Assembly (NCBI GenBank): GCA_026393835.1
Contig: JAPKZK010000111.1
Location: 32,115-96,114, forward strand
Reading direction: 5' to 3'
Length of the DNA stretch: 64,000 nucleotides
DNA from: Candidatus Aminicenantes bacterium
Lineage (GTDB): Bacteria; Acidobacteriota; Aminicenantia; UBA2199
Below are positions 19,066-47,937 of the stretch, in pieces. Position numbers and translations under genes: made by a program. The notes beneath the pieces are model-generated. The model did not search any database. It was not told the origin of the DNA and worked only from the letters and a program-made list of their open reading frames with translations. Positions within the stretch are counted from its first letter, which is position 1. Each line of letters opens with the position of its first letter.

Positions 19066-19359
19066 GAAAAGTTGAGCAAGAACAATGTAAAGCTGAGGGA
19101 GCATGATGTAAAGTTGAGCGAGACCGATGTTAAGTTGAGGGAAACCGATGTAGAGTTGAGCGAGCATTATGTAAAGTTGCGGGAGCATAATGTTAAGTTG
19201 AGCGAGACCGATGTAAAGTTGAGCGAGCATTATGTTAAGTTAAGGGAGACCGATGTAGAGTTGAGCCAGCATTATGTAAAGTTGTGGGAGCATAATGTTA
19301 AGTTGAGGGAGACCGATGTAAAGTTGTGGGAGCATAATGTTAAGCTGGGGGAGCATATT
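19066..19359. repeat. Tandem array of 13-14 contiguous 21-bp units (GTWRAGTTGNGNGAGMMYRAT)
   Basis: Units phased from 19087, with a degenerate unit at 19066: gtaaagttgagcgagaccgat, gttaagttgagggaaaccgat, gtagagttgagcgagcattat, gtaaagttgcgggagcataat and so on. No spacers. Stop-free frames exist on both strands. Confidence 0.9.
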
Positions 19360-19627
19360 TTGTTGCTCAATGAGGAATAAAAAGTGCATGGCGAGCTTAA
19401 AGAAGTACCTATTGAGTATAAATGGATGCAAATGTGGTTTGAAGAAGTGAAAGAATATACTTATGATGATATGCTTTTCAATCATTCCCAGGCTGCCCCG
19501 GTTATTTTTCTCTTATTGTTGGCCATGGATTTAGCAGGTTGATGGATGAGGAAAAAAGATTAACAGGAACGGGCAGCCGTAAGTTCTTTACGGCTGCCCA
19601 ATGTTCACTGTCATCAAAGATTTCCGC

Positions 19628-24258: not shown

Positions 24259-27200
24259 TTATTTAGGCAAGATATTTATGTTTACTCGCTTTGCTCGATT
24301 CTCTTCACTGTCGATAAATACCAATTCATAGTTTCCAATAAAACCGGGTCCGGGATTCCAATAGAAAACTCCCTTTTCCCTGTCCAACGTCGAACCGATG
24401 GGCAGAGATTTCAACGGCTGGACAACTACCCCGAAATCGATAACCACCCGCTCCAATTCATGGATAACGATATTCGTAATACCGTTATCCCCGGGATAAA
24501 CCGTTTGCGGCGCAGCGTCTTTTCGATATCCTTTTATAACCGTCACCGGACCGTTTAGATCAGGGAGGAGCGATAACGTGTCATCGATGGGCGAAAACGA
24601 ATCAAAAACGGGCGAACACGCAGAAAATTCAGCGGAGCCCCTACGGTCCATATCGGCCCCGGTGTTCTGCACGATGAAGAACCGGCTGCCGATGCCGTCG
24701 GCGTTCCCCCCATTATCGGTAACGATCCAGAATATGGTATGAATGCCGTTGCTGTACCCGGTGGTATTAAAATTAAACGAACCGGCGGCGCCGTTACTGT
24801 TGCCATAACCGGGGAATAAGGATGCGATATCCGACCGGTATTGGTTGTAAGTGACCGTTCCCTTTTTTTGGCTGTCTATATAAACTTCAATAGTGGAGCC
24901 GTTCGTGGGTATCTTGTTGGGCTGGGGCGTTAATACCCATCCGAAATTGGCGTAACTACTACCGGATGCGCTGCCGCCCTGCGTAGGGGTATCGATGGCC
25001 CCAAAGGGTTTTACTGCATCGGCATTATTGCAATAAACGGTTTTTGAACCCAGGGTCACCACATGACCGGCGGAATCCGTGACTTTGGCGTACAGGGTAT
25101 AGGTTCCATTGCCGTGGTTGGGCAAAAAGTGGGTCAATAACATATAACCCCACCCGGCCTGGTAATTTTTCGGGTTAGTGGAATAAGCCGCCGCGACATC
25201 CGCCCGCGCCCCTTCCACGAATACGGCGTCCCCTATATAAGTGGAACCGTTGTAAATCTTTACGTTGGCGACATCGATATCATCCAGCGCCCAACCGGTG
25301 ACGGGAACGCTGCTGCTGACATAGGAGCCATTTACCGGGGTGGCGAACTCCCCGAAGGGCGATTGATCGGAGGCTGAACTTTTAACCGTCAAGGTTACGG
25401 AAACCGTCTGGGGCGAATTGGAAGCGCCGGTAGCAGTAACGGTAACGGTCCCGGTATAAGTTCCCGCCACCAGGCCGGCGGTGTTAACGGATAACGTAAC
25501 CACCCCGGCCCCACTGCCGGAAGTGGGGGCGCCGCTGAGCCATGAAGCGTTATCGGAGATGCTCCAACTCAATGTACCGCCGCTGCTGTTATCAATACGC
25601 AAGGTTTGTCCCCCGGTATTAGTCCCACCGACGATGGCGCCGTAATAGAATTTAGTCCGGTTTAAGGATATTTTGGAACCCGATGTGGTGGATATTGTGA
25701 AAACAGTATTCGATGTATCTGCGGGTGAACTATCCGATGCTTCGAGGATTTTTATAAGGCACTGGGTAGACGGTTTCGAAGGGACAGTCCATTTATGCGA
25801 ACCGTCATTGGCGGTTGAGGTCACAATGTTTGTCCAACTGCTGCCGTTGTTGGTGGAATATTGTATTTTCACATTGCCCACGGTCCCGGTGGTGCTCCAG
25901 GTGATAGTATGCGATGCTCCGACTACCAGTGTTTCGCCGCCATTGGGGGAAGTAACGGTTATAGTGGGGGTAGTGGACGTGACAATGGAAAACACGGCGT
26001 TGCTGTTATCTGTCGGCGTACCCCCGGAGGCTTCTTTTATCCTCACCTTGCACTTCGTAGACGAAACCGTGGGAATTTTCCATGAATGAGAGCCGTCATT
26101 GGCGGTGGAAGAGATAACCGTGGTCCAGGTGCTGCCGCTGTTGGTGGAATATTCTATTTTTACATTGCTTATGGAACCGGTGGAAGTCCAGAAAATCGTT
26201 TGCGTGGAACCGGCGGCCCAGGTTTCGCCGCCGTTGGGGGAAACAACGGTTATGGAAGAAGTGCTGATCTCCTGTCTGAAATTACGAACCGTGCCGAGGG
26301 TGTTGTTCAACGACTTGCGGTTATCGGCGGCCAGGGGGTCTGTATAGACGACGCCCATGGGTTTGCCGCCGTAGGTTTTATCGGGGTTGGACCAGTAGTT
26401 GACGCGGGGACAGCCGCCGGGACAATCGTATGCCATGATGGTTCTAAAGGCTTCATCGGGGTCCTGGTAGCCGTAGGAATAATCATATACCCCGGCATTG
26501 GCGGCGTTGGCGCGGTCATGGGCGCAGCCCATGTTGTGTCCCCACTCGTGGGCTAAGGAGTAATACCCGGTAGCGCAATCGATGGATACCAGGCAAAATG
26601 CATTGGCCTCAAAGGAACTACTCAGCGTTTGCATCAAATATCCAATACCGCAATAGGCGCCCTGGTTAACGATTAATGCAACTTCGTCGGCTCTATAGGT
26701 ATCCCGTAAGGTATGCACATTATCCATATAACCGTCGGATTTGCCCTGGAGCCTGGTTAGGCAGGTGCTCCAATCGAAACCGGTCTCATCGTAGGCGACC
26801 TCCGCCGTATGGACCAGGCGCAGCCGCTGGGTCACGCCGCTGTTGCTGTACCCGGCATTGCTTTCGGTTATCCCCAGGTCGATTAAAGTTCCCATGGCGG
26901 CGGTTCCGCCTGCCGCGATGCGGGCGTCGGCGGTATATACCACCAGGGCATCGATGTAAATGCCCGTATCTGATGGGGTATCTGTTTGTTTATCCGCCGG
27001 TTTCAGGTCTACCGGGACCGGTGGGAGTTCCGACGGGAAACGGCTGTGATCCAACTCCTGTACGCTGTGCAAATCGCCGGCAATGTAACGCACCCGGTAT
27101 AAATGTCGGCCGGTGTTGATATTGGCTGAAAGTATTCCATCGTTCTTTACCATGACGACTTCTCCCCCGGGGATTCCTTCCAGGAATCCGACGTAAGAAG

Positions 27201-27531
27201 TCCCGCCGGAAAAGGTTTTCTCTACCTGGTAAATCCGGGTTTTGAAATAAACATCGTCAAAAAGGTTCAAAGAGAGGGGATATGATTCCGTGGGCACACC
27301 CGGGGCATCGGCCGCGGTTTCCAATTGGCATAATTGGTCCAGATCAACTCTTACGGCCCGTGAACGAAGCAACGGCGTGTTGTCTAAAACAGTCGCCTGT
27401 TCATATATCCCGGCAGCGGAAAAAAGTCCCGGTGGAAGGGGCTCTTCCGCTCTTATATTGAAAGTAACGAACAATAACGCGAAACATAGGGTAATGATGG
27501 TTTTTGATAATGATGTGTTTTTGCTTCTCAT
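24259..27531 (-). CDS. Secreted zinc metalloprotease (metzincin, reprolysin/M12B-like) with the same C-terminal module as the S8 protease
   Basis: 1090 aa with a signal peptide. Zinc site HEWGHNMGCAHD (HExxHxxGxxH), candidate Met-turn TIMAY. Three about 85-aa repeats (ITVVSPNGGETW ... VKIEYS ...), a BACON-like segment, two Ig-like domains and the conserved tail. Confidence 0.88.
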   Translation of the reverse strand: MRSKNTSLSKTIITLCFALLFVTFNIRAEEPLPPGLFSAAGIYEQATVLDNTPLLRSRAVRVDLDQLCQLETAADAPGVPTESYPLSLNLFDDVYFKTRIYQVEKTFSGGTSYVGFLEGIPGGEVVMVKNDGILSANINTGRHLYRVRYIAGDLHSVQELDHSRFPSELPPVPVDLKPADKQTDTPSDTGIYIDALVVYTADARIAAGGTAAMGTLIDLGITESNAGYSNSGVTQRLRLVHTAEVAYDETGFDWSTCLTRLQGKSDGYMDNVHTLRDTYRADEVALIVNQGAYCGIGYLMQTLSSSFEANAFCLVSIDCATGYYSLAHEWGHNMGCAHDRANAANAGVYDYSYGYQDPDEAFRTIMAYDCPGGCPRVNYWSNPDKTYGGKPMGVVYTDPLAADNRKSLNNTLGTVRNFRQEISTSSITVVSPNGGETWAAGSTQTIFWTSTGSISNVKIEYSTNSGSTWTTVISSTANDGSHSWKIPTVSSTKCKVRIKEASGGTPTDNSNAVFSIVTSTTPTITVTSPNGGETLVVGASHTITWSTTGTVGNVKIQYSTNNGSSWTNIVTSTANDGSHKWTVPSKPSTQCLIKILEASDSSPADTSNTVFTISTTSGSKISLNRTKFYYGAIVGGTNTGGQTLRIDNSSGGTLSWSISDNASWLSGAPTSGSGAGVVTLSVNTAGLVAGTYTGTVTVTATGASNSPQTVSVTLTVKSSASDQSPFGEFATPVNGSYVSSSVPVTGWALDDIDVANVKIYNGSTYIGDAVFVEGARADVAAAYSTNPKNYQAGWGYMLLTHFLPNHGNGTYTLYAKVTDSAGHVVTLGSKTVYCNNADAVKPFGAIDTPTQGGSASGSSYANFGWVLTPQPNKIPTNGSTIEVYIDSQKKGTVTYNQYRSDIASLFPGYGNSNGAAGSFNFNTTGYSNGIHTIFWIVTDNGGNADGIGSRFFIVQNTGADMDRRGSAEFSACSPVFDSFSPIDDTLSLLPDLNGPVTVIKGYRKDAAPQTVYPGDNGITNIVIHELERVVIDFGVVVQPLKSLPIGSTLDREKGVFYWNPGPGFIGNYELVFIDSEENRAKRVNINILPK

Positions 27532-31564: not shown

Positions 31565-31610
31565 TTTTCCCTGGTACCCCAAAAACTTTTGATCATGGGT
31601 CCACTTTAAA

Positions 31611-31647
31611 GGAAAGTTTACCACAAAAAGGAGTAAAAGGAAACATA
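31611..31647 (-). promoter_or_regulatory. Copy 1 of a 37-nt element shared by the upstream regions of both glycan operons
   Basis: ggaaagtttaccacaaaaaggagtaaaaggaaacata is identical at 47739-47775. The minus strand reads ...TTTTTGTGGTAAACT..., an extended -10-like TGnTAAACT. Confidence 0.6.
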
Positions 31648-31669
31648 ATTGCGGGCGTCTCTAAAAGGG

Positions 31670-31698
31670 TTGACTTTTCAGCGGTTTAATAATATTAT
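31670..31698 (+). promoter_or_regulatory. Candidate promoter of the DUF433/DUF5615 pair
   Basis: TTGACT (31670-31675), 17-nt spacer, TATTAT (31693-31698). Confidence 0.5.
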
Positions 31699-31737
31699 TT
31701 TAGGGAAGTTTCAATTGAAACTTTGCGGAGGTTTTTA

Positions 31738-31962
31738 ATGATTTTTGAAAATAATATATGTATCGACGCGAAAATAAGGGGTGGAAAGCCAATAATAAAA
31801 GGAACACGAGTTCCTGTAGATTTAATTCTCGGCAAATTGGCCGGCGGCATGACTTATGAAGAAGTTCGGACGGAGTACGATATCACGCAAAAAGATATAC
31901 TTGCTGCTCTTGAATATGCATCTTTATATATTGCCGATGAAGAGATAAAAGTAGTTGCTTGA
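31738..31962 (+). CDS. DUF433-family protein (putative antitoxin)
   Basis: GGKPIIKGTRVPVDLILGKLAGGMTYEEVRTEYDITQKDILAALEYA matches the DUF433 pattern. Start moved to the ATG at 31738, 6 nt after GGAGG. Confidence 0.75.
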   Translation: MIFENNICIDAKIRGGKPIIKGTRVPVDLILGKLAGGMTYEEVRTEYDITQKDILAALEYASLYIADEEIKVVA

Positions 31963-31995
31963 GAGATTTTCTATGGTATACCGAGAGAGTCGCCA

Positions 31996-32361
31996 GTGAT
32001 TAAATTTTTAGTTGATGAAGATATGCCCCGTTCAACTGCTCGAATGTTAAGAGAGATGGGATTTATCGCTCTTGATGTAAGAGATTGTGGGTTGAGAGGA
32101 AAAACCGATGAAGAAATTTTTGAATATGCACAAAAAGATGGGGCAATAATTTTAACCGCGGATAGAGGAATTGGAAGTACATTGAGGTTCCCCCTGGGAA
32201 CTCATTGTGGAATTGTAGTTGCAAATTTTCCCAGTGAAATTTCTACCACTGATTTAAATATTCAAATTCATAGGGCTCTCCTTGAGCTTCCCGGAGAGGA
32301 TTTAATAAACAACCTGGTCATTATTGAGCCGAAAAAGATTCGAATTAGAAGATACAGGTAA
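31996..32361 (+). CDS. DUF5615-family PIN-like protein (putative toxin)
   Basis: 121 aa, GTG start. FLVDEDMP ... GLRGKTDEEIFEYAQKDGAIILTADRG matches the DUF5615 acidic-residue pattern. Confidence 0.7.
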   Translation: MIKFLVDEDMPRSTARMLREMGFIALDVRDCGLRGKTDEEIFEYAQKDGAIILTADRGIGSTLRFPLGTHCGIVVANFPSEISTTDLNIQIHRALLELPGEDLINNLVIIEPKKIRIRRYR

Positions 32362-32475
32362 GTACTCGCCGCCCTGGAAAGTTTGTTCGCCACTTTCCAA
32401 AGTATTCTCCTTGCAGCCCCCAATTTGGTTTATTTCCAGGATAGTTAGTTGTATCAATATTCTTAGATCATTGCC

Positions 32476-32533
32476 TTTTTTTTTGGTCCGTGTCTGTCCG
32501 TGTCCGTCCGTGTTCGTCCGTGGCCCTTTTTTT
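32476..32533. repeat. T9-(GTCCGT-rich tract)-T7 element
   Basis: ggtccgtgtctgtccgtgtccgtccgtgttcgtccgtgg (32485-32523) flanked by T-runs. The 13-mer gtccgtgttcgtc (32506-32518) is the exact reverse complement of window positions 1-13. Confidence 0.7.
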
Positions 32534-32563
32534 CGGGTTTCGAATTTCGGATTTATTATTAGG

Positions 32564-32593
32564 TGGTTGATTATGGGACAGGCCGAATTTCAC
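32564..32593 (+). repeat. Direct repeat R, copy 1 (left of the SIR2-STAND gene)
   Basis: tggttgattatgggacaggccgaatttcac, 30 nt with 1 mismatch to 40649-40678. Confidence 0.85.
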
Positions 32594-32645: not shown

Positions 32646-32674
32646 TAGACTTTAAACTCATTTTCGTCTATAAT
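32646..32674 (+). promoter_or_regulatory. Candidate promoter of the two-gene STAND/nuclease operon
   Basis: TAGACT (32646-32651), 17-nt spacer, TATAAT (32669-32674); about 60 nt upstream of the TTG start. Confidence 0.45.
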
Positions 32675-32733
32675 TCCTGTATGGAAAAAGCATTAAATAA
32701 AGTACCCGGCCCTACTTTACCCGGAGGTGGGTT

Positions 32734-35700
32734 TTGAATATCCGGCAAGCGGTTCCTCTCCTGGTGGAGAGATTAAGGCAGCAAAAAGTCATTCTTTTCG
32801 TGGGCGCGGGGTTATCACAGGGATCGGGTCTCCCCGGCTGGAAAAAATTGTTCGAGCCTTTCTGCAAAAAACTGGACTGCCCCGATGAAGAAAATTTCCC
32901 TGCCGTGGCCACCACCCTGATCCAGGAACGAATTCATAACCGCAAAGAGATTATCGAACATATCGTGAAACAAATCGGCGCCGTCACCCTGGAACTGAAC
33001 CCCAATCATGATTTAATCAAACGCCTTCCTTTCAAAATCATTATAACCACCAATTACGACAACCTGCTGGAAGACCTTTACGGCCCCTCCAGGCTCACGC
33101 GGATATACTCGGATGAGAACATGGCTTATTTCGATCCCCATTCCGCCAAAAAGCAATTGATCTATTTGCACGGCGATATCAACCACCCGGACCATATGGT
33201 GGTTTCCAGTATCGACTACCAGAACTTTGCCGATACCCGACCCATCATGGTGGAGCGGTTGAAAACCCTGCTGCAGGATTATACTTTCCTGTTTATCGGC
33301 TACAGCGCCGGCGACCCCAACTTGCAGGCGGTTTTCGATCATTTCCGGATAACTTATAAAGAAAACGCCAACCGCCACTTTATCGTCATGGCAGACCCCG
33401 GCAAAGTCAAACAGACCGAACTCTCCACCCGCTTTGGCATCGAACCGGTCATCCTCAAGGATAAGACGGAATTAACCTCTTTTTTACATGCGTTGTCCGA
33501 TGCTTATGAAAACCCGGACCGGGCAACGGCCCCCGGCCAGGGAGAAGAAGCAAAGGTTCCGGGAGACGGGGAAACCGGATTTGTCGATGATTTCATTAAA
33601 GCCCGCGGCCAAAAAAAAACCGGGGCGCCGCCGTCCCCTACGCCCATGCCCCTGGATTTCCAGCCGCTGAAGCCCTTTAACGTACCCGGGGCAGACCCCC
33701 ATTTTACCGGGCGGGAAAAGGAGTTGGAGGTGCTGCAAAAAGCCTTGCTGGATAAACAAACCGTGGCGGTTACCGGGTTGTTCGGAATGGGGGGAATCGG
33801 TAAAACCAGCCTGGCCAAACAGGTGGCGCACCAATTCCACCGGGATGGTTACTTTAAAGACGGGATATGCTGGCACCGCCTGGAGGCCAAAACATTACCC
33901 GTTTCCCTGGAAGAGATGGCCGATGTCTTCGGGGCAGCCTGGTTAAAAGAGATAAAACCGCTGGAAACCCAGGCCAGGTATTTCCAGGCCGTGATCCAGG
34001 ACCTGGATATCCTGTTTGTCCTTGACAATGCCGAATACCTGGAGAATATCCCGCCCCTGCTGGACCTGCTGCGGAACCATTCCATCCTCATCACCAGCCG
34101 GCGCCACCTGGCCGGGCTGGCTGGAGTCATAGACCTCCACCGGCTGGATGGTGAACAATCCATGCAGCTCTTTATCAAAACCTGGAAAAAGAAGGACCGG
34201 GAAGAGGAGATCAAGCACATCGCGGCTGCGTTGTCTCCTCAAGAGTTGGTGGTATTACATTCGGTATGTACCGGGTTGCTGGGTAATTTGCCGCTGGCCA
34301 TTACCATTGCCGCCAGTGTCTTGCGGTACAAAAAGATCGACATTATCGCTTTTCAAAAACTCCTGGCGGAGAAACAATTGAGTCTGCTGCAGGACCCCAA
34401 TAATGTATACAAGACCGAGGAAAAAGATCGTAATGTCCGGCTCTCCTTTGATTTTTCCTTCGGCCTACTCCCTGCCGATGGGTTGGAGCAGTCGTTGTTT
34501 GTCGTCATGGGTATTTTCGGCGGCGAGGATTTTAGCCGGGAGGCATTGGTGGAGATTTTCAAAGAGGAGAATAAAGAAGCCATCGACAGCGGGGTGGAAA
34601 TATTGGAACAGCTTTCCATGGTGCAGGTTAGAGCAAACCAACGGTTCTATCTCCATCCCTTGCTGCGGCAATATGCCCTGGAAAAACTCCCGGAATTCAA
34701 AGGCGATGCGGCGTATGAAGCCATGGCCGGTTATTACCTGGACCTGGTTAAAAACAATCCCCAGGCCCTGCATTATGAATGGAAGAACGCCTTACCTTTC
34801 GTGGACTGGTGCCTGGCCCACTCCAGGGAAAAAGACGGCCTCTTTCTGATTAAAAAAATCGATTGGTTTCTTTATGAGACCGGCCAATGGAGCGGCCGGG
34901 AAGAATGGCTGAAAAAAGGCATAGATATAGCAAGCCGCATTGAGGATGTGTCCGAACTATATTCTTTTACTGAAAGAATGCAAGATTTGTATGGCAGGCA
35001 GGGGAGATTATCAGAGCAAAAGGAAGTATCTCACTCGCTGTCTAATTACTGCCGCGGGTTCAAACAACTGGAGAGTTACATCCCCTGGATTAATTATACA
35101 TTGGCAGCTTCTTTTCTTGATTCCCATGAAATAGAGAAAGCCTATTATGCCAATCTAAAGAACATGAAAGATTCGCTGTTTTATGGACAGAAAACGACAA
35201 TCGGCGCTAGTTATCAAAATCTGGGCAATATATGCTGGCGAACTGGTCTTCCCCGGAGGGCATTGCAGTTCTACCGGGCAAGTCTGGTGATTGCTGAAAA
35301 ACTCAGCACTCTAAAAACAAATAAAACCAGGGCCGTCGGTGATGTGAGTGATATCTACCTGGACATGGGCCAATGGACCGAAGCGCTGGAATGGTTAAAA
35401 CGATATGAGAGCGAGCTGGCTGAAAATCCGCATAAGGAACTGGAAGCCGATTTGTATGAAAAATATTTCTTTTACTATCTTGGAACCGGGGATACCGGGA
35501 AAGCCCAGGATTATTTAGATAAATACAAAGAGACCGGCACGGAATTCGGTAAGGTTACCTCTTCGGCAAAATTATTTTATTATGAAGGTCTGCTGGAAAA
35601 AGTAGGGGGCCATCATGAAAAGGCTATCTCTATTTTTGAAAAAGCATTGCAATTCTACCGAGATATCCGGCGGGAAGACGAAACCGGGAAGTGCTTTCTT

Positions 35701-38700
35701 AATATGGGCATATGCAGTGTAAGGCTGGGAAACACCCGGAAAGCCAGGGAATATCTCCAGGCCGCCGGAGACATTTTTAAGAAATATAGAAATGAACCCC
35801 TGTTACGATGCCAACAGGAAGCCTATTATGCCCTTTTGGAAGCCCGTTCCGCCTATGACGAACAAGCCGTTCGATTGGTTACCAGGGCGAAGAATACATA
35901 CCTGCACATGGGCATCGAAAATTCCAGGGAGCTTCACGAGATTGAAACCGATATCCGGCGGGAAATTGGCGAGGACCGGTTTAACGCTCTTTTAAAACAG
36001 TTAAAAGACAGCGGGCATGCCGATGAGACCATTGATTTCGGCGTCGATTTTTTGCAGGTGGACCCGGAACAAAAAAAAATCGTTTCTCCCCTCGACCACC
36101 GGGAAATGGCTTTGATCCCTTCCGGTTTTTTCGAATCGTCGCATTATAAATACACCCTTTACCTCTATCCCTTTTATATGGATAAATATCCTGTCACCAA
36201 CAGCGATTATAAAAAATTCACCGATGCCATGAATATGGAAACGCCCCCCCATTGGCTTGATGGCAAAATTCCCCCGGGTATGGAAGATCACCCGGTAGTG
36301 GGTATTACCTATGACCAAGCCCTGGCCTATGCCCAATGGGCAGGTAAAGATTTGCCTTTAAATGAGGAGTGGGAAATCGCCGCAGGAATTTCAGAGCAAC
36401 AGGAGCCGGGAATTTTAGAAGAGGAGCGTTCATTATCCCACTTCATTTCTGTGAGAAATAAAACAGCATTAATAAAACAAGAAGAAAACGAACTATTCAG
36501 CGATGCATCCTTGAAAATAAAGACTTCCCCTGTAACTCAAGACAAAGACAATCGCAACCCCTTTGGCCTTTGCGATCTCCTGGGCAATGTCTTCGAATAT
36601 ACTCAATCTTTTTCAACCATATTTTTCGGGACGACAGAATACCTTATTTTAAAAGGCTTTTCATGGCAGAGACATTCTTATGATAAGAAAGACGACATCA
36701 CCGACGGCCATTATTCCTTCAATTATCAAAGATGGGCGGATGTGGGTTTCCGGTGTGTAAAGCGTATTTTGCGTAAAGAAGACGCCCAACGCTTTATTAC
36801 CGACGGGGACAAGGCAAAGGATTGGGAGAATCAATGGTGGTATGACCGGGCTCAACATTTATTTGATATCCTACCATCCGGGAACTATTACGAATCGGTC
36901 GAGTCTGTCCTCGCCAAAGGGATAACCTGTTGCCAAAACCTGCTGGACCTTTCCCCCGGACATAAAAAGGCCGTTTACCTGTTAACCCGGTTTAGCTTTC
37001 ACCTGGATGATTTAATAAAAATTAAGTGGTTCTTCGACAACACCTTATACCCCCTGCTGGCAAAGGAAAAAGATGCGTCCACTTTTAATTGGAACCGCCT
37101 GCGGGAAATACTTTCCTCCACTACCGAAAGGGAAGAAGCAGAGGATTCCAACACCATTACCCGTCACCAAAAACTGGAAGAGCTAACCGCTAAAATCGAT
37201 TGGCTGTTGGAAGCCCTTGAAGACAATATGCTGTTGGCGGACTTACGGTTGACCGGACGAAATACCTTCGAATCCCTCGAATACCTGCTGAACCGGTACG
37301 AAGAGAAGCTCAGCTTTCTCCAGTACACCGTGATCCTGTTTCTCTGCTTAATGAAAATGAAACTCAATAAAGAAAAAGAATCCCTGGAAGCCAGGGCGGA
37401 GATTTCAGTGGAATTACTTACCCCAACGCTCGAAATAGGAAAGGAAAGCATTGTCGCGGTAAAGGTAAGCAGCCGTGGGTTGGCGCCGGTAAAGGACATT
37501 TATATCGAATTATCCGCTGAAAAAGAACCGCTGCAAGATGAAGTAAAACACCTGGAAATAGCCCGGCGGCAATTTACGATACCTTTCCTGGCGGGCGGGG
37601 AAACCCTTGACCTGGAAACCGCGGTCACGGCCCATAAAACCGGGACTTTTCCTCTTTACATAATTGCCGGTTACACAAACCCGGCAGCCCCGGAAGAAGA
37701 ACAAGAAACCCGGCAAACCACCGAAGCCAGCCTCGAAGTCACGGCACCTCAGCCCATCCCCGCCGCGGATAGTACTACAGGTAAGGCCGGTATACCAGGT
37801 ACGGCAAAACAGAGCTATGCTTTAGATAACCCCTATTATACCGGTAGGCCCATCCAGGAACCCGGTATGTATTTCGGTCGTAATGACGTATTGGAACGTA
37901 TCGAACAGAGGCTGGGTCCCAACAATATTATCATCCTCTATGGCCAGCGGCGAACCGGCAAAACCTCCACCCTCTTCCAACTTAAAAACCGGGTCTATAA
38001 ATATACCGCCGTCCCGGTAATCCTGGACATCCAATCCATGATGGGAGACGATACCTCATTTCTTTTCTACCGGATGGCATCGGACCTTTATGAAACCATG
38101 GTCCGGTTGGATAACACCATTCCCACCCACCTGCCGGAACCCGTAACCGAGGAATTTAAAACCAACCCCCAATATAAATTCGAACTCTTTTTAAAAAAGG
38201 CAATAAACGAGGTAAAAGAAAAACCCATCATTTATTTGATCGATGAATTTGACGGATTATTTTATATGATAAAAGAGAAAAAGGTAGAACCCACTGTACT
38301 GGACAACCTGCGCAGTATCATGCAGCATTATCAACAAGTCTGGTTCATCCTGGCCGGGACATATAAAATAAAAAGCGAGGCTGCGGATTCCAAATCAGCC
38401 CTGTTTAATATCGCCACCTATGAAAAAATAGGCGCCCTGGAAGAAAAAGACGCCAGGGCGTTGATCACCCACCCCCTGCAAGGCCGGGTAGAATATGAAC
38501 CCTATGCCGTCGATAAAATAATTTCTCTTACCAACTGCAATCCTTATTTTATCCAGGCCATCTGTTTCGAAATGGTATACTACCTGGAAGCGAGGCAATT
38601 GCGCCGGGTAACCGTCAAGGACCTCCAGGTCGTGGTAGACAAATTATTCGACCGGGGAAGCTCCCATTTCGATCAATTCTGGACATATTTAAGCAAACCC

Positions 38701-38967
38701 GAATGCCTGATGCTCTCATTGTTGGCCACAAATACCCGGGAGTATGAAAACTTTATCTCACTGGACCGGGTCAGGGACATATGTAAAGGGTGGATCGACC
38801 CGAAAGTGGATATTTATAAAATCATCACCCAATTACAGGAGAAAGATTTCCTTACCCGGCGGGAATACCTGGGAAAACCACACACCGGTTTCTTCATGGA
38901 ACTATTTAAACGCTGGGTACTGATTCATCATCCCCTTGAATCTTATGAATTGAACGATAGAGGGTAA
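32734..38967 (+). CDS. Giant multidomain STAND protein: SIR2-like, NB-ARC NTPase, TPR-like repeats, FGE-sulfatase-like domain, helical region, Ig-like segment, second P-loop ATPase with wHTH-like end
   Basis: Uninterrupted 2077-aa ORF with a TTG start after GGAGGTG. SIR2_2 motifs: ILFVGAGLSQGSGLPGW, ITTNYDNLLE, YLHGDI, FIGYSAGDPN. NB-ARC: GMGGIGKT (33784-33807), ILFVLDNAE, ILITSRR, GNLPLAI. FGE-like (about 36106-36760): YMDKYPVTNSDYKKF, HPVVGITYDQALAYAQWAGKDLPLNEEWE, NPFGLCDLLGNVFEYT, GFRCV. Second ATPase: GQRRTGKT (37942-37965), IIYLIDEFD. Confidence 0.85.
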   Translation: MNIRQAVPLLVERLRQQKVILFVGAGLSQGSGLPGWKKLFEPFCKKLDCPDEENFPAVATTLIQERIHNRKEIIEHIVKQIGAVTLELNPNHDLIKRLPFKIIITTNYDNLLEDLYGPSRLTRIYSDENMAYFDPHSAKKQLIYLHGDINHPDHMVVSSIDYQNFADTRPIMVERLKTLLQDYTFLFIGYSAGDPNLQAVFDHFRITYKENANRHFIVMADPGKVKQTELSTRFGIEPVILKDKTELTSFLHALSDAYENPDRATAPGQGEEAKVPGDGETGFVDDFIKARGQKKTGAPPSPTPMPLDFQPLKPFNVPGADPHFTGREKELEVLQKALLDKQTVAVTGLFGMGGIGKTSLAKQVAHQFHRDGYFKDGICWHRLEAKTLPVSLEEMADVFGAAWLKEIKPLETQARYFQAVIQDLDILFVLDNAEYLENIPPLLDLLRNHSILITSRRHLAGLAGVIDLHRLDGEQSMQLFIKTWKKKDREEEIKHIAAALSPQELVVLHSVCTGLLGNLPLAITIAASVLRYKKIDIIAFQKLLAEKQLSLLQDPNNVYKTEEKDRNVRLSFDFSFGLLPADGLEQSLFVVMGIFGGEDFSREALVEIFKEENKEAIDSGVEILEQLSMVQVRANQRFYLHPLLRQYALEKLPEFKGDAAYEAMAGYYLDLVKNNPQALHYEWKNALPFVDWCLAHSREKDGLFLIKKIDWFLYETGQWSGREEWLKKGIDIASRIEDVSELYSFTERMQDLYGRQGRLSEQKEVSHSLSNYCRGFKQLESYIPWINYTLAASFLDSHEIEKAYYANLKNMKDSLFYGQKTTIGASYQNLGNICWRTGLPRRALQFYRASLVIAEKLSTLKTNKTRAVGDVSDIYLDMGQWTEALEWLKRYESELAENPHKELEADLYEKYFFYYLGTGDTGKAQDYLDKYKETGTEFGKVTSSAKLFYYEGLLEKVGGHHEKAISIFEKALQFYRDIRREDETGKCFLNMGICSVRLGNTRKAREYLQAAGDIFKKYRNEPLLRCQQEAYYALLEARSAYDEQAVRLVTRAKNTYLHMGIENSRELHEIETDIRREIGEDRFNALLKQLKDSGHADETIDFGVDFLQVDPEQKKIVSPLDHREMALIPSGFFESSHYKYTLYLYPFYMDKYPVTNSDYKKFTDAMNMETPPHWLDGKIPPGMEDHPVVGITYDQALAYAQWAGKDLPLNEEWEIAAGISEQQEPGILEEERSLSHFISVRNKTALIKQEENELFSDASLKIKTSPVTQDKDNRNPFGLCDLLGNVFEYTQSFSTIFFGTTEYLILKGFSWQRHSYDKKDDITDGHYSFNYQRWADVGFRCVKRILRKEDAQRFITDGDKAKDWENQWWYDRAQHLFDILPSGNYYESVESVLAKGITCCQNLLDLSPGHKKAVYLLTRFSFHLDDLIKIKWFFDNTLYPLLAKEKDASTFNWNRLREILSSTTEREEAEDSNTITRHQKLEELTAKIDWLLEALEDNMLLADLRLTGRNTFESLEYLLNRYEEKLSFLQYTVILFLCLMKMKLNKEKESLEARAEISVELLTPTLEIGKESIVAVKVSSRGLAPVKDIYIELSAEKEPLQDEVKHLEIARRQFTIPFLAGGETLDLETAVTAHKTGTFPLYIIAGYTNPAAPEEEQETRQTTEASLEVTAPQPIPAADSTTGKAGIPGTAKQSYALDNPYYTGRPIQEPGMYFGRNDVLERIEQRLGPNNIIILYGQRRTGKTSTLFQLKNRVYKYTAVPVILDIQSMMGDDTSFLFYRMASDLYETMVRLDNTIPTHLPEPVTEEFKTNPQYKFELFLKKAINEVKEKPIIYLIDEFDGLFYMIKEKKVEPTVLDNLRSIMQHYQQVWFILAGTYKIKSEAADSKSALFNIATYEKIGALEEKDARALITHPLQGRVEYEPYAVDKIISLTNCNPYFIQAICFEMVYYLEARQLRRVTVKDLQVVVDKLFDRGSSHFDQFWTYLSKPECLMLSLLATNTREYENFISLDRVRDICKGWIDPKVDIYKIITQLQEKDFLTRREYLGKPHTGFFMELFKRWVLIHHPLESYELNDRG

Positions 38968-38984
38968 AGAGTAAGGAGTAATAC

Positions 38985-40586
38985 ATGATAAAAATCGATT
39001 ATATTTGTGGAGGCATTGACAACATCAGCGACTTTTACGGCAGGCAAGAGTTGATCGAGGAGATCAGTCACAGGTTAAAATCATGGCAATCGGTCTCCAT
39101 ATACGGTGAAAGGAAGATGGGTAAAACATCGTTGTTAAAGTATCTTTTCAACGAAGGCATCAAGCAGGTTCCCTTTCCTAACCCCAGCCAGGTGATTATA
39201 CTTTATGAAACCTTTGCCGGGAAACAGAATACAACGGTGGATATTTTTTTACAAGAGTTATACGATGTCCTTAACCGGAACGTTAGCCTACCGGTGGATT
39301 CGCAGAAAATGGATAAAAATATTTTCAATAAATTCATCTCCGAATCGCACTATAGAGGAAAACATTTCATCTTCTTCTTCGATGAAATCGACGCCGCCTC
39401 GGAAAACAGCGCCTTTGACCATAATTTTTTCAGTTTTCTTCGTTCGTTGGCCGATAAGTATAAAGTCCAGTACATTATAGCCTCCAGGAAATCGATCAAA
39501 CAGTTGATCCGAGAAAATAACGTGGCCTCTCCTTTTAACGGTTTGTTTTCCGGGAACCTTTTTAAGCTGGAAGTATTTGACCGGGAAGAGGCTGAAGGAT
39601 TTTGCCGGAAATTATCACGAGACGCGCTGGCCGGCGACGCCATCGCACCGGAAATTATTGTCCGGCTTGCCGGCAGGCATCCTTTTTTGATCCGCATAGC
39701 CTTCTATCATGCCGTGGACCTGGCTGTCAAATCGAAAGACAACCGCCCCGATTATGAGCAACTTAAGGCGATCTTTGAAAAAATAAGTTATAATGCTTAT
39801 TTTTTAGATATCTGGTCTCACCTGGAAGCAGCGGAACGGCGCTTATTAAAAAACATTTCCCTTAAAATCCTGCCGGACCGATTGAAGCTTTTTGAAAAAG
39901 AAATGATCGATGACTTTAAAAGCAAGGGATTGATATTCCATGATGAAAAGGAAAATTATATTTTTTTCAATGGCTATTTCGAGGATTTTGTCCGGGAATG
40001 GGATATCGAGGCGACCGGGCTGGCGGCAGGACCGACGGAACCGGTTGATTTCGATAAGGAGAATTTTAGCGCGAGATTACAAACGGTTAAAAATATCTCT
40101 ACCACCCCCGGGGAAAAAGGAAATGCCCTGGAAAAATTGGTTGCCGATTTATTTAGAGCTTATAAAACCTATTTTGAGGTGAGAAAGCAAGTCCGTTCCA
40201 GGACCTCGGCCCTGGATATTCACCTGTGGTTCAAACCCGGCGATGACCCCCAGCTTAAAAAATTGGGCGAGGAAATAATCGTCGAATGTAAGAACTGGCA
40301 GAACCCGGTGGGAAAACCGGAGATAAATGACCTGGCAGGCGATATGGTGAGTAGAAAATGCAAAACCGGTATCCTGGTTTCAAGAGAAGGAATTACCGGC
40401 CATGGATTAAAGGATGCGGAAGGTCAGAGGGTTATCTGGTTTCAATCGGAAAATAACCTGATCATACTGGTAATAACACTAAAGGACCTGGAATCCATTG
40501 GAAAAGGAAAGAACCTGGTGGATTTATTAAAAGATAAATATTCGGAACTTGTTGAGGGAAAACCCGCTCCTCCTCGGGTAGATTAA
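38985..40586 (+). CDS. P-loop ATPase (paralogous to the C-terminal ATPase of the preceding protein) fused to an Mrr-type PD-(D/E)xK nuclease domain
   Basis: 533 aa. Starts 17 nt after the preceding stop, behind AAGGAG. FYGRQELIEEI ... GERKMGKT (39105-39128), FIFFFDEID. C-terminal ALEKLVADLF ... LDIHLW ... IIVECKNW (E-C-K at 40284-40292). Confidence 0.85.
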   Translation: MIKIDYICGGIDNISDFYGRQELIEEISHRLKSWQSVSIYGERKMGKTSLLKYLFNEGIKQVPFPNPSQVIILYETFAGKQNTTVDIFLQELYDVLNRNVSLPVDSQKMDKNIFNKFISESHYRGKHFIFFFDEIDAASENSAFDHNFFSFLRSLADKYKVQYIIASRKSIKQLIRENNVASPFNGLFSGNLFKLEVFDREEAEGFCRKLSRDALAGDAIAPEIIVRLAGRHPFLIRIAFYHAVDLAVKSKDNRPDYEQLKAIFEKISYNAYFLDIWSHLEAAERRLLKNISLKILPDRLKLFEKEMIDDFKSKGLIFHDEKENYIFFNGYFEDFVREWDIEATGLAAGPTEPVDFDKENFSARLQTVKNISTTPGEKGNALEKLVADLFRAYKTYFEVRKQVRSRTSALDIHLWFKPGDDPQLKKLGEEIIVECKNWQNPVGKPEINDLAGDMVSRKCKTGILVSREGITGHGLKDAEGQRVIWFQSENNLIILVITLKDLESIGKGKNLVDLLKDKYSELVEGKPAPPRVD

Positions 40587-40689: not shown

Positions 40690-42075
40690 TTATTCGCTTA
40701 ATGAAATCGATTTGTACAAAAAATTCTCTGCCCCGGGGGTGTATAAATTTAAGACTTTCTTCCAGTTCGAATATTTTCTCCCGGCTTCAAGGAATTTTCT
40801 TATTTTCGTTTTTATCGCCTCTATATTAAACCGCTTCGGTGAAAGCTTGCATTCTCCGAAATAAATTTCCCTGTCCCTGTCATTGGTGAATATAATATCT
40901 ATCTCAGTCTCCCCCCTATCCCAGTATTGACCGATGCGGTCGAAGCGCAACCGTCCGTTCCGGTTCATTGCACTCAAATAAGCGATCATAAATTTTTCAA
41001 ATTTTTTACCCATAAACACCGGCATATCTTCCATCATTTCAGTCGTTATGCGCTCACTGCACAACATTTCGATCCGGCTCTTATTTTTAAAAATATACCT
41101 GAACCAGGAATCCAGGAAATTATCACCGATATAATAGCGACCCATTTTGTGGCTTTCTTTCGAATCGAAAGGCGCTCTCCGTTCGATCAGTTCGTGGTCC
41201 TCCATTAATTCCGAAATATACCGGGCCAGGCTGTGAACAGGAATCCCCGAAGCATCCGCAATCCGGGACATGGTGGTGGCGCCGCCGGCAATGGCTTCCA
41301 ATATACTGAAATAGGTGGAATAATCTTTGCCGAACTCTTCCAACAAAATCTCTCTCCCTTCATTAAGGAGGATGGAATTTTCATCCAGTATATCTTCCCT
41401 GATGAAATCTTGCCTGGATTTTCCAAACCCTCCCCGTTCGCTGATGTAATTGTAATAGAAAGGAATCCCCTCGAATAGGGAATAGAAGAAGAGCAAATCA
41501 TCATTGGACGTTAAGCCGTGGTCAGACAATATTTCTTTTACAGTTTCAAGGGAAAAGTGTCTTAATAAGAAGCTGCCGTTGAGTCTACCGTAAAGAGGTT
41601 GGTCGGCATTTTCGAAAATCCGTCGCATCATACTGTTGATGGAGCCGATGACCAGGAGCAGTCCCTTTGACTGCTGCTTGTTAAGGTCGATGTGCTTTTG
41701 CAGGATACTGAAGATCGCATCGTTCACATATTTGAAATTCTGGAATTCATCAAAAACCGCGATTATTTGTTTTCTTTTTAAGAGGGCAAAGAGGAATTTA
41801 AAGAAATCATCGAAGTCTTTAAAACTGACTCCCCGGTACTCGTTCAATTGTTCCGAGATGATGGCGGAGTATTCCTCCAGCAGCAATTTTTCTTTTTTTT
41901 TAGTGACAAAGAAGTAGAGGGGTTGGGCGTTTGTTCTTTTTAAGTACTCCCTCACAAGAAGTGTTTTACCGATGCGTCTTCGACCGGTCATCCTGATGAA
42001 AAAGAGGTTTTGGTTCGCCAGGTTTTCAAACGACGCCAGTTTTTCCAATTCGTCTTGCCGGTCATAAAACTTCAT
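40690..42075 (-). CDS. Arch_ATPase/DUF234-family ATP-binding protein (P-loop ATPase + C-terminal PD-(D/E)xK-like DUF234)
   Basis: 461 aa. FYDRQDELEKL ... GRRRIGKT, IAVFDEFQN. C-terminal ETEIDIIFTNDRDREIYFGECK. Confidence 0.8.
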   Translation of the reverse strand: MKFYDRQDELEKLASFENLANQNLFFIRMTGRRRIGKTLLVREYLKRTNAQPLYFFVTKKKEKLLLEEYSAIISEQLNEYRGVSFKDFDDFFKFLFALLKRKQIIAVFDEFQNFKYVNDAIFSILQKHIDLNKQQSKGLLLVIGSINSMMRRIFENADQPLYGRLNGSFLLRHFSLETVKEILSDHGLTSNDDLLFFYSLFEGIPFYYNYISERGGFGKSRQDFIREDILDENSILLNEGREILLEEFGKDYSTYFSILEAIAGGATTMSRIADASGIPVHSLARYISELMEDHELIERRAPFDSKESHKMGRYYIGDNFLDSWFRYIFKNKSRIEMLCSERITTEMMEDMPVFMGKKFEKFMIAYLSAMNRNGRLRFDRIGQYWDRGETEIDIIFTNDRDREIYFGECKLSPKRFNIEAIKTKIRKFLEAGRKYSNWKKVLNLYTPGAENFLYKSISLSE

Positions 42076-42383: not shown

Positions 42384-43175
42384 ATGAACGATTTCAATCA
42401 GAAGCTGGGAATGAAAATTAAAAAGATACGAGATCAATTACAGATAAGCCAGGAAAAACTAGCAGAAATCCTGTCGATATCCAGGTCATCGCTGTCGCAA
42501 ATTGAAAACGGCAAGCGGGAACTTAAAAGCTGCGAACTGGTGGAAATCTCAAAAGCGTTTAATTGCTCCATCGATGAACTCCTGGATTTAAAAAAAGAAC
42601 CCTCCATTAATATATCCCAGGTTGATGCAGGTTTAAATGCCTCTAATGAGATCCGGATTAATGTTCCCCAAAAAAATCTTGTAAAATTCAAAGAAGTATT
42701 GCTTTACATATTGAATAAAGTCGGTTCAAAGCCCAATATCGGAGAAACCGTACTATATAAGCTTTTGTATTTTATCGATTTCGATTTCTATGAGAAGTAT
42801 GAGGAGCAGTTAATAGGAGCATCCTATATAAAAAATCATTATGGCCCTACGCCGCTGGAATTCAAAAAAATCGTAGAAGAGATGATAGCGGACAAAGATC
42901 TAATCAAAGTGGATGATCGGTATTTCAAATATCCACAGACAAAATATTTACCTTTGCGGGATTCGAACTTGAAGTATTTAAAGGCCAATGAAATCGAGAT
43001 GATTAATGATGTATTAAACCGGCTTTCGCATATGAATGCATCGCAGATCAGCGAATATTCGCATAATGACGTCCCCTGGCTCACTGCGGACAAGCAATCC
43101 GTAATCGAATATGAATCGGTATTTTATAGAACGCCTTCTTATTCAGTAAAAACGGGAATCGATGACGATATTTAA
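42384..43175 (+). CDS. XRE HTH fused to a DUF4065 (Panacea/SocA-type) antitoxin domain
   Basis: 263 aa. HTH LGMKIKKIRDQLQISQEKLAEILSISRSSLSQIENGKR. DUF4065 pattern ETVLYKLLYFIDFDFYEKYEEQLIGASYIKNHYGPTPLEF. Confidence 0.75.
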   Translation: MNDFNQKLGMKIKKIRDQLQISQEKLAEILSISRSSLSQIENGKRELKSCELVEISKAFNCSIDELLDLKKEPSINISQVDAGLNASNEIRINVPQKNLVKFKEVLLYILNKVGSKPNIGETVLYKLLYFIDFDFYEKYEEQLIGASYIKNHYGPTPLEFKKIVEEMIADKDLIKVDDRYFKYPQTKYLPLRDSNLKYLKANEIEMINDVLNRLSHMNASQISEYSHNDVPWLTADKQSVIEYESVFYRTPSYSVKTGIDDDI

Positions 43176-43551
43176 ACAAATTAAAAATACCGATTTATTC
43201 GATAAGGATTTAAAAAAACTTTTGAAACGGTTTCGTTCATTGGAAGATGATTTAGAAGTATTTATCGATATCCAGTTGAAATTGTTTCATAAAATAAAGC
43301 AGGACAATGGCGGCATTAAACAAATTACAGGATTGAAAAAGGAGTACCCGCGGGTATATAAAGCAACGAAATTTGCCTGTAAGAGTTTGAAAGGGAAAGG
43401 GGGAAAATCAGGATTAAGGCTTATTTATGCATACTTTGAGAAAGAGGATATCATTGAATTTATCGAGATGTATTATAAAGGTGACCAGGAGAATGAAGAT
43501 TCGGATAGGATCAAAGAATACCTTTCTTCTCTTTTTCCTGACCCCCAATAA
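43162..43551 (+). CDS. Putative toxin, RelE/ParE-superfamily-like
   Basis: 129 aa, overlapping the upstream gene by 14 nt. FDKDLKKLLKRF ... SGLRLIYAYFEKEDIIEFIEMYYKGDQEN resembles RelE/YafQ-type toxins. This is a weak, by-eye call. Confidence 0.5.
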   Translation: MTIFKQIKNTDLFDKDLKKLLKRFRSLEDDLEVFIDIQLKLFHKIKQDNGGIKQITGLKKEYPRVYKATKFACKSLKGKGGKSGLRLIYAYFEKEDIIEFIEMYYKGDQENEDSDRIKEYLSSLFPDPQ

Positions 43552-43552
43552 T

Positions 43553-43636
43553 AAATTGGGCGAGGAAATAATCGTCGAACGTAAGAACCGGCATAACCCG
43601 GTGGGAAAACCCGCAGGCGAAACCATACTTTATCGC
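43553..43636 (+). pseudogene. Deleted duplicate of the 3' end of the ATPase-Mrr gene plus its downstream flank
   Basis: 43553-43611 matches 40260-40318 (59 nt, 3 mismatches; encodes KLGEEIIVERKNRHNPVGKP, with ECK changed to ERK). 43607-43633 matches 40623-40649 (27 nt, 1 mismatch). About 305 nt between the two segments is missing, at an AAACC microhomology. Confidence 0.8.
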
Positions 43637-47700: not shown

Positions 47701-47738
47701 GCGCTGTCCGGCCGGCGTTTATTAATTAAATATTTAGA

Positions 47739-47775
47739 GGAAAGTTTACCACAAAAAGGAGTAAAAGGAAACATA
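47739..47775 (-). promoter_or_regulatory. Copy 2 of the 37-nt upstream element (38 nt upstream of the wzm start)
   Basis: Identical to 31611-31647. Partial similarity extends about 8 nt on both sides. Confidence 0.6.
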
Positions 47776-47937
47776 TTGCATTTTCAACGTGGCAACGATT
47801 CAATGGGCGCTAACCCTGAAAATTAAAATAAGAGATGATTTCATGATATTTGAAGAAACCAGGCGGCTTTATTTTTTTCCTCTTTACGTAAAGACATATA
47901 TATCGTATAATATTGGCATTGGAGGTTTAATTTTAGC

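Follow-up and report, generated by a model that had tools for sequence, protein, structure and literature searches.

What is a single bacterial protein doing with two nucleoside triphosphatase (NTPase) modules, an effector-type domain at its front and a nuclease gene directly behind it? This question is raised by a stretch of 64,000 nucleotides (nt) from Candidatus Aminicenantes bacterium (contig JAPKZK010000111.1 of assembly GCA_026393835.1, positions 32,115 to 96,114; hereafter the window, with positions counted from its first letter), which contains a giant gene encoding 2077 amino acids (aa) and, behind it, a partner gene that we call B. Upon comparing both genes with profile libraries, structure models and their relatives in other assemblies, we arrived at a reading that we hold with moderate confidence, namely that they form a two-gene conflict system with three ATPase switches and two effectors, in which a sensor would drive both the SIR2 domain of the giant and an Mrr nuclease in B, the latter through a pair of ATPases made up of the C-terminal module of the giant (hereafter A) and the N-terminal module of B. 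Our confidence is higher than this for a conflict system with an A-B complex as such, and lower for the notion that one sensor drives both outputs. A conflict or defence role is the most plausible reading of the two genes, most likely an antiphage or abortive-infection one; antiphage function and NAD+ depletion are what we infer from the sequences. The features of the operon are the following.

32646..32733 (+): putative promoter TAGACT-17-TATAAT (32646-32674) with ribosome-binding site GGAGGTGGG, from a consensus scan and the sequence
32734..38967 (+): giant gene, 2077 aa, in the order SIR2, NB-ARC, TPR, FGE-like, helical, Ig-like, ATPase A
32734..33513 (+): predicted SIR2 (ThsA-type) effector domain, aa 1-260, with catalytic-type N107 and H146 (Pfam, PADLOC)
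33679..34713 (+): NB-ARC / AP-ATPase-type STAND (signal transduction ATPase with numerous domains) NTPase, aa 316-660 (Pfam NB-ARC, motifs)
34714..36093 (+): helical/TPR repeat region, aa 661-1120 (Pfam TPR_12, TPR_2, TPR_1 and others, aa 825-1036)
36094..36768 (+): FGE-sulfatase-like domain with C-type-lectin fold, aa 1121-1345 (Pfam, alignment to human FGE)
36388..36549 (+): hypervariable loop of the FGE-like domain, aa 1219-1272 (identity, length variation, and the ratio of nonsynonymous to synonymous substitution rates, dN/dS)
36769..37392 (+): all-helical domain, aa 1346-1553 (AlphaFold2 model)
37393..37749 (+): Ig-like beta-sandwich, aa 1554-1672, forming an Ig-A unit with the following module (AlphaFold2 strands at aa 1557-1670)
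37858..38967 (+): ATPase A, aa 1709-2077, with ORC/Cdc6-like AAA+ core, lid and winged helix (Pfam, Foldseek)
38985..40586 (+): partner gene B, 533 aa, starting 17 nt past the stop of the giant (Pfam, orthologue alignment)
38985-40019 (+): ATPase B, aa 1-345 of B (Pfam nSTAND2, AAA_35)
40092-40583 (+): predicted Mrr-type PD-(D/E)xK nuclease, aa ~370-533 of B (Pfam Mrr_cat)

The giant gene is a single frame that starts at TTG and stays open over 2077 codons (32734..38967, +), as the initial annotation of the window had described it. The whole architecture recurs in eight other full-length homologues of 2032-2259 aa (49-87% identity) and in a ninth at a locus in an unrelated genomic context (L004), all on independent contigs of metagenomes and metagenome-assembled genomes (MAGs); altogether at least 10 metagenomic homologues retain it, the most divergent giant being that of locus L019. 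No internal stop occurs in any of six giant genes, and the whole-gene dN/dS of 0.23-0.28 denotes purifying selection on the giant. As full-length homologues stand on independent contigs, free of internal stops and with such low dN/dS, the open reading frame (ORF) is not an assembly artefact. Conservation across the homologues peaks in SIR2, NB-ARC, both halves of the FGE fold and ATPase A. Upstream, the ribosome-binding-site-like GGAGGTGGG ends seven bases before the TTG start, while the promoter call is a pattern match only, promoter-like sites being no commoner in this region than in shuffled sequence. A GTCCGTG-rich run (ggtccgtgtctgtccgtgtccgtccgtgttcgtccgtgg) with T-runs on either side lies at 32470-32535, ~200 nt before the start of the giant, and a terminator-like hairpin was called inside it at 32508-32523.

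The front end of the giant has the makings of an NLR-like receptor (after the nucleotide-binding, leucine-rich-repeat receptors). Pfam SIR2_2 matched aa 102-230 at E 1e-26 (94 bits, cut-off 24.5), and PADLOC, one of the checks that the initial annotation had proposed, gave a strong match on the SIR2 part only, with the ThsA-type SIR2 model aligned to aa 7-226 at E 1.6e-42 and covering profile positions 10-230 of 478. With N107 (in TTNYD) and H146 (in HGD) invariant in the eight full-length homologues, and a dN/dS of 0.08-0.18 over the domain, both the profile and the catalytic-type Asn/His pair identify it as a predicted ThsA-type NADase. The following NTPase matched Pfam NB-ARC over aa 327-535 (E 1.4e-9, 38.1 bits, cut-off 23.5) and holds its motifs in order, Walker A GMGGIGKT (K357), Walker B LDNAE (D431), the GxP motif (LPLA) and an MHD-like LHPL, all four unchanged across the eight homologues. 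These ordered motifs, the profile and the repeats C-terminal to them place it, as predicted from its residues, in the NB-ARC / AP-ATPase clade. The NCBIfam models AfsR, FxSxx_TPR and HaaT matched the NB-ARC and TPR parts at 1e-25 to 1e-28, far below their cut-offs. All domain calls of the initial annotation held up, by Pfam SIR2_2, NB-ARC, TPR, FGE-sulfatase and ATPase_2 and by AlphaFold2 for the Ig-like beta-sandwich and the winged helix, and the motifs that it quoted are all present and invariant in the eight full-length homologues.

The centre of the giant looks like a sensor rather than an enzyme. Pfam FGE-sulfatase matched aa 1144-1343 (nt 36163-36762) at E 2.4e-31, and alignment to human FGE placed N1330 and A1335 at the positions of C336 and C341, such that the catalytic cysteine pair is missing. 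The FGE-like domain thus appears to be a binding fold and not an enzyme, sharing fold and profile only with true FGE. A domain without the cysteines fits the lectin-like sensor role that has been proposed for FGS domains in STAND systems by Kaur et al. (PMC8195603) and in a 2026 STAND survey (PMC13581612); the initial annotation, too, had spoken of FGE-like domains as computationally noted putative ligand sensors. Within the domain, identity among homologues falls to 21-28% in a loop, compared to 58-76% in the flanking halves; dN/dS there is 0.5-1.6, compared to 0.08-0.4 in other domains and 0.3-1.0 in two short linkers, and loop length differs by up to ~250 aa between homologues. First described as a 55-aa insert, this stretch is a hypervariable loop and not an insertion, its length in the giant being about that of the equivalent loop of human FGE in the alignment.

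Behind the FGE-like domain, an AlphaFold2 model of aa 1344-2077 (mean pLDDT, the predicted local distance difference test, 78.8) showed helices throughout aa 1348-1552, then a beta-sandwich over aa 1557-1670 and a disordered linker (aa 1674-1709), and finally an AAA+ core with its lid and a winged helix. No Pfam family stood among the listed matches over aa 1346-1700, and a fold search with the model was dominated by ATPase matches, leaving the helical domain (aa 1346-1553) without a class. The Ig-like domain also stands immediately before A in seven other A-family representatives.

A close relative of the window, the syntenic contig L001, showed where this centre varies. The flanks of the two are ~96% identical and SIR2, NB-ARC and A 92-99%, whereas identity drops to 74-80% in a trough from ~35.9 to ~37.7 kb that takes in the FGE-like domain, the helical domain and part of the Ig-like domain, and in which synonymous divergence (dS) is five- to eight-fold higher. 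This pattern suggests that recombination has replaced the central segment with that of a divergent allele. As the FGE loop and the helical domain form the divergence hotspot of the protein, they are likely its specificity determinant. A second, weaker trough lies over the N-terminal ATPase of B (38900-39500; 86-88% compared to 97-98%).

Diversification of the loop by a diversity-generating retroelement was considered and rejected: no template-like repeat of the FGE region occurs anywhere in the 64-kb window, and no reverse-transcriptase family was among the Pfam matches of the neighbouring genes scanned, the search being limited to the window. In the FGE loops of four homologues (P0006, P0008, P0011, P0012) we noticed, once or twice each, a helical module of ~70 aa (consensus ...SISL..EK..I..IP.LSQYQIDELIRIF..E..KF), which P0011 also carries as a threefold repeat at its C-terminus; Pfam offers no convincing family for this module, which may have an adaptor or binding role and be new to the literature.

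The C-terminal ATPase of the giant proved to be one half of a pair. Pfam ATPase_2 matched A over aa 1715-1940 at E 2.4e-13, with AAA_22 on the same stretch, and A also matched nSTAND1 (32.5 bits, cut-off 27.1) and nSTAND6 (35.5 bits, cut-off 27.7); its motifs GQRRTGKT (K1743) and LIDEFD (D1837/E1838) are invariant in the eight full-length homologues. In Foldseek, A resembled ORC1/Cdc6 at E 1e-10 to 1e-9 and the PF01637 ATPase PABY2304 (2qen) at a target-normalised TM-score of 0.71, with weaker matches to NLRs such as RPP1 and to Apaf-1. The N-terminus of B matched Pfam nSTAND2 (E 3.6e-12, 46.6 bits, cut-off 24) and AAA_35 (E 1.2e-11), and its C-terminus Mrr_cat (E 5e-12, 46.4 bits, cut-off 21). 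Across 16 of 16 orthologues of B, the Walker motifs GERKxGKT and FFFDExD are invariant, as are the Mrr residues E383, D411 and E434-x-K436 (E434-C-K436), and profile and D...ExK signature together indicate a predicted intact Mrr-type nuclease.

BLASTP aligned A with B colinearly at 20% identity over 294 aa (E 2e-9), and both modules fold like ORC/Cdc6, PABY2304/PF01637 and STAND/NLR ATPases; by this comparison they are colinear paralogues. A search of PDB sequences with A and B returned nothing significant, and fold comparison was used instead. We predict that A and B build a hetero-oligomeric ring, for which single-chain B-A and A-TPR-B fusions and an Arg of the LRS motif aligned between the two give indirect support. 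The initial annotation had called A a second, unrelated ATPase: it does belong to a different family from NB-ARC but is not unrelated, having the same AAA+, lid and winged-helix plan as ORC/Cdc6 and STAND proteins. Likewise, the nuclease partner then pointed out is indeed an Mrr protein, in which a third ATPase, paralogous to A, had been missed. Downstream of B, at 43539-43611, we came across a decayed copy of its Mrr catalytic region (40244-40318), 75 nt long, ~91% identical and 3.3 kb away, in which the encoded KLGEEIIVECKNWQNPVGKP now reads ...VERKNRHNP...; it sits at the end of the region of a 129-aa ORF (43162-43551), a region that L001 lacks, and may be the scar of an earlier copy or of recombination at the island border.

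The pairing of A with B holds beyond the giant. Orthologues of B form a tight group at 55-91% identity, with a sharp drop to 30% or less beyond it, and the gene immediately upstream of B ends in A, both in the window and at all those looked-up loci that have an orthologous A (L001-L010, L019), among them three in unrelated genomic contexts (L002, L003, L004) and one in which the two genes overlap by 4 nt (L019). A-B gene pairing is hence obligate in the loci examined. It includes stand-alone A genes of 404-421 aa, 63-77% identical to the A of the window and followed by B (L005-L007, L008/L010). In two independent contigs of the stand-alone lineage that lies beside Trk genes, B is called as a 73-aa plus a 434-aa ORF (L008 8447-10048; L010 4458-5744), which would mean that B carries a conserved frameshift, uses another start codon or is decaying.

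Other relatives recombine the same modules. In P0010 (L009), where the TPR, FGE and helical regions are missing, SIR2-NB-ARC is joined straight to Ig-A and the next gene is B; P0011 begins with an additional CHAT domain and retains the front end as far as the Ig-like domain, but not A; P0012 begins with an additional Metallophos domain, and its sequence, on a 6.5-kb contig, breaks off inside the helical domain. A neighbour-joining tree of the A modules, computed without support values, nested the stand-alone forms among the fused ones; taken at face value, the front end would have been lost at least twice or gained repeatedly. Farther out, P0074 (A 36% identical) is followed by an nSTAND2 protein, P0015 combines an N-terminal ATPase_2-type module with TPR and CARDB ahead of an nSTAND2-TIR protein, and P0013 carries beta-propellers and A beside a divergently transcribed nSTAND1/2 gene, a distribution from which the A/B partnership appears to predate the giant's own family.

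An exhaustive HMMER search showed the A family to be large, with 7878 representative clusters at a threshold of E <= 1e-3 and 731 at the stricter one of E <= 1e-30. Of its 150 best representatives, 116 carry A as their C-terminal module and have more than 300 aa in front of it; this preceding stretch usually consists of beta-propeller, HEAT or TPR repeats and frequently ends in the same Ig-like domain, immediately ahead of A. As A so commonly stands behind a long upstream region, an upstream sensor region is the family norm. The particular SIR2-NB-ARC-TPR-FGE front end occurs in one of these 150, P0006, which stands for the giant's family. The two NTPase engines in one chain that the initial annotation had singled out are present, the C-terminal one being the A subunit of an A+B pair that also exists alone; nor are two such modules per chain unique to the giant, as NB-ARC-TPR-A (the independent protein P0150), A-A, B-A and A-TPR-B chains exist elsewhere in the family.

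We suggest that the giant arose by fusion of an NLR-like receptor to the A subunit of an ORC/Cdc6-like 'nSTAND' ATPase pair that also exists separately. In this proposal, of which the defence role, the NADase and DNase activities, the physical A-B complex and the feeding of both switches by one sensor are predicted parts, the TPR, catalytically dead FGE-like, helical and Ig-like region would bind an invader-derived ligand. NB-ARC would act as an oligomerisation switch whose assembly activates the effector in cis, the NAD+-hydrolysing SIR2, as in other SIR2-bearing defence proteins, and ligand binding would also promote A-B hetero-oligomerisation and so license the Mrr nuclease, leaving the infected cell without NAD+ and DNA integrity. 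Its most specific form, a bifurcated NLR in which one central hypervariable sensor drives two NTPase switches and with them a cis SIR2 NADase and, via B, a trans Mrr nuclease, is one that we put forward tentatively.

Several observations weigh against this model. Because P0010 has no TPR-FGE-helical region and the stand-alone A+B pairs no front end, A+B can do without the sensor, just as the front end can do without A in P0011; coupling between front end and A is a prediction. The raised dS of the hotspot points to recombination rather than to proven positive selection, the structure model of the partner has moderate confidence only (pLDDT 68), and no PADLOC, NCBIfam or Avs model matches the whole system.

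The separate existence of the halves, with A+B alone in L005-L008 and L010 and the front end without A in P0011, is also what one would expect if two independent defence systems, a NADase NLR and an A+B nuclease, shared one reading frame for co-inheritance or co-expression with no signalling between them, particularly as defence genes commonly cluster and neighbours frequently fuse. We nevertheless think this doubtful: the fusion has been retained over 49-87% identity in at least 10 lineages, purifying selection extends across the two junction regions as well as the Ig-A unit, and a sensor-to-A link in cis is the rule in a family in which A usually stands behind a long sensor-like region of the same chain and in which P0150 is independently NB-ARC-TPR-A. 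Alternatively, the A+B nuclease pair could be primary and the fused NLR its guard or back-up, firing SIR2 if A or B is blocked, for example by phage anti-defence proteins. The status of A+B as the older, autonomous unit, with stand-alone forms nested among fused ones, would agree with such an arrangement, as would the second hotspot in the N-terminal ATPase of B (86-88% compared to 97-98%), which is expected if invader proteins target B. The hypervariable FGE loop and helical domain, however, resemble a sensor of external ligands and not an internal monitor; the guard idea, purely inferential and so far indistinguishable from our preferred model, is one that we consider unlikely.

Very unlikely, in our view, is a housekeeping or regulatory ATPase of the AfsR/MalT kind, in which SIR2 would deacylate proteins and the ORC-like winged-helix ATPases would bind DNA for regulation or replication control. 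Such a role would accord with the sub-threshold resemblance of NB-ARC and TPR to AfsR, FxSxx_TPR and HaaT, with the ORC/Cdc6-like, winged-helix build of A and B, and with the position of the island inside a polysaccharide-biosynthesis gene cluster. It is at odds with a SIR2 domain of the SIR2_2/ThsA defence type and an intact Mrr nuclease in B, with a very sparse and patchy occurrence (4 loci in 185,579 species genomes), and with unrelated contexts beside toxin-antitoxin or defence-like genes, rapid domain gain and loss and a hypervariable hotspot. The two-gene conflict system with a shared sensor remains the reading that we prefer.

The scan for B behind these numbers covered 185,579 species-representative genomes and returned four loci, all in MAGs, from Acidobacteriota, Candidatus Deferrimicrobium and an uncultured bacterium; the system is rare, its distribution sparse and patchy. 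A metagenome scan with exact peptide patterns of A returned the L001 contig alone, phage records held no relatives, and plasmid records held distant domain-level matches only. Toxin-antitoxin or defence-type neighbours in the window and at homologous loci comprise DUF433/DUF5615, HTH-SocA, SLFN_AlbA_2, HepT/MNT and NACHT-FGE genes.

Just upstream of the giant, a DUF433-like 79-aa ORF (31723-31962, +) and a DUF5615/PIN-like 121-aa ORF (31996-32361, +) look like a toxin-antitoxin pair. Contig L001, elsewhere ~96% identical, lacks a segment of ~890 nt (31674-32564), which was therefore recently inserted or deleted. A direct repeat of 43-48 nt (31605-31652 and 47733-47779; 98% identical, copies 16.1 kb apart) brackets the defence island together with adjacent glycosyltransferase, methyltransferase and ABC-transporter genes and is present at both matching positions of L001; a repeated regulatory region and an old integration border are the two candidate explanations. 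We rejected the ATPase_2-DUF234 gene downstream of B (40690-42075, -) as a system component, since L002, L003 and L004 do not have it and in L001 it has decayed, leaving a fragment of DUF234 and small ORFs; it is probably a passenger of the island with no relation to the system. The next gene, of HTH_3 and SocA/Panacea antitoxin type (263 aa), is overlapped at its end by the 129-aa ORF, which has no Pfam match (42384-43551 together, +), and the two may form a toxin-antitoxin pair.

At homologous loci, a Metallophos-NACHT-FGE protein of 1160 aa is encoded near the operon of L002 (561-4043, -), and a TIR protein of 279 aa with a truncated FGE start (L005 11232-12071, -) adjoins the stand-alone A+B of L005-L007. 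The latter was rejected as a fission product of the giant, as it covers only the first ~50 FGE profile positions and has no specific similarity to it. Elsewhere in the window lie a 21-nt unit repeated in tandem ~17 times, with 64-86% identity in register and no relation to the giant (19026-19395), and two paralogous large genes of 1154 and 1090 aa (14402-17866, -, and 24259-27531, -) with 63-86% identical stretches ~9.8 kb apart, the second of which matches a Reprolysin-like metallopeptidase and bacterial Ig domains.

If the preferred model is true, the operon joins two predicted immune classes that have so far been treated separately, NLR-like STAND receptors with lectin-fold sensors and the widespread ORC/Cdc6-like 'nSTAND' ATPase pairs. 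Nature has supplied variants for its dissection, namely the full fusion, a form without TPR-FGE, the front end without A, A+B alone and different FGE-helical alleles, which make testable the signalling of the pair, the ligands of FGE-like domains and whether one sensor drives two effectors. Should the bifurcated form hold as well, it would be the first receptor to turn one recognition event into two cell-killing outputs via two distinct ATPase assemblies, and a first functional handle on the 'sensor-A + B-effector' class (the 731 representative clusters at E <= 1e-30). None of the members of the A family, large as it is (the 7878 clusters at E <= 1e-3), has been characterised, so that many genes would be annotated by a functional result for any one of them.

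How, then, does the operon relate to known systems? Membership in Thoeris, Avs5, Dsr1/2 or Lamassu was considered and rejected, the PADLOC and NCBIfam matches being domain-level or far sub-threshold. The SIR2 domain of the giant, and that domain only, is closest to models of the Thoeris SIR2-SLOG NADase ThsA, with the catalytic-type Asn and His kept; the giant, unlike ThsA, has no SLOG/STALD domain, and its operon has no TIR ThsB gene. With the SIR2-STAND antiphage proteins of Avs5 (AVAST type 5; PMC12931631), for which a SAMD9-like sensor is described, it has in common a SIR2 N-terminal to a STAND NTPase and a large C-terminal sensor, and it would work like them as a NADase NLR. The giant differs in the NB-ARC type of its NTPase, in a sensor of TPR and FGE-like parts, and in its extra ATPase and partner gene, and no PADLOC Avs model matched it at E <= 0.1. 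The AAA+ core, lid and winged-helix plan of A and B is that of PABY2304 (PDB 2qen), SSO1545 (PDB 2fna) and ORC1/Cdc6, whereas identity to the archaeal PF01637 ATPases and ORC1/Cdc6 is 11-16%, and A and B are a nuclease-bearing pair in a defence-type operon and not a replication initiator.

Two further precedents are classes predicted by Kaur, Iyer, Burroughs and Aravind (eLife 2021, PMC8195603). In their effector-STAND-FGS proteins, an N-terminal NAD+/nucleotide-targeting effector is followed by a central STAND NTPase (NACHT, MNS, nSTAND1, KAP or AP-GTPase) and a C-terminal FGS domain, the FGE-like lectin-fold domain being proposed as an invader sensor, with frequent association to diversity-generating retroelements (PMC8195603); FGE-like STAND sensors also appear in the 2026 survey (PMC13581612). 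The giant has SIR2, NB-ARC and FGE-sulfatase in that order in one protein, and a classical Metallophos-NACHT-FGE gene lies near the L002 operon. Yet its SIR2 effector is absent from the list of the class and its NTPase is of the NB-ARC/AP-ATPase type, a TPR region of ~460 aa stands between NTPase and FGS, the chain runs 730 aa further through helical, Ig and second ATPase modules, and its 64-kb window has no template repeat of the diversity-generating-retroelement type. In the second class, an operon of two genes encodes a pair of nSTAND2-type NTPases for which a toroidal hetero-multimer is predicted (Fig. 6C of PMC8195603); the inactive NTPase of the two is the one that bears the effector, usually GT4 or HEPN (PMC8195603). 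A and B are likewise adjacent, paralogous ORC/Cdc6-like STAND-type NTPases, one with a variable effector, and B scores above the Pfam nSTAND2 cut-off. In contrast to the published pairs, both A and B keep Walker A and B, so that neither NTPase is eroded, Mrr is the effector, the profiles that A matches are ATPase_2, nSTAND1 and nSTAND6 and not nSTAND2, and A is fused to a complete NLR-like protein.

The literature on nSTAND2, AAA_35 and PF20702 comes down to the Kaur 2021 framework and fungal NLR papers only, and the homologue accessions MDQ1354720/1, MCP4695296, MCP4698860 and HLP59621 appear in no searchable paper. The composite itself was found in no model library or paper, in a comparison outside of which lie the 589 clades in the supplementary tables of the 2026 survey (PMC13581612). 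The initial annotation, which could match the full architecture to no named system, was right insofar as no PADLOC or NCBIfam model matches the whole protein, while both building blocks were already in Kaur et al. (PMC8195603). Overall, the composite is new, and its parts, the STAND-FGS proteins and the nSTAND2 gene pairs, have already been described computationally (PMC8195603).

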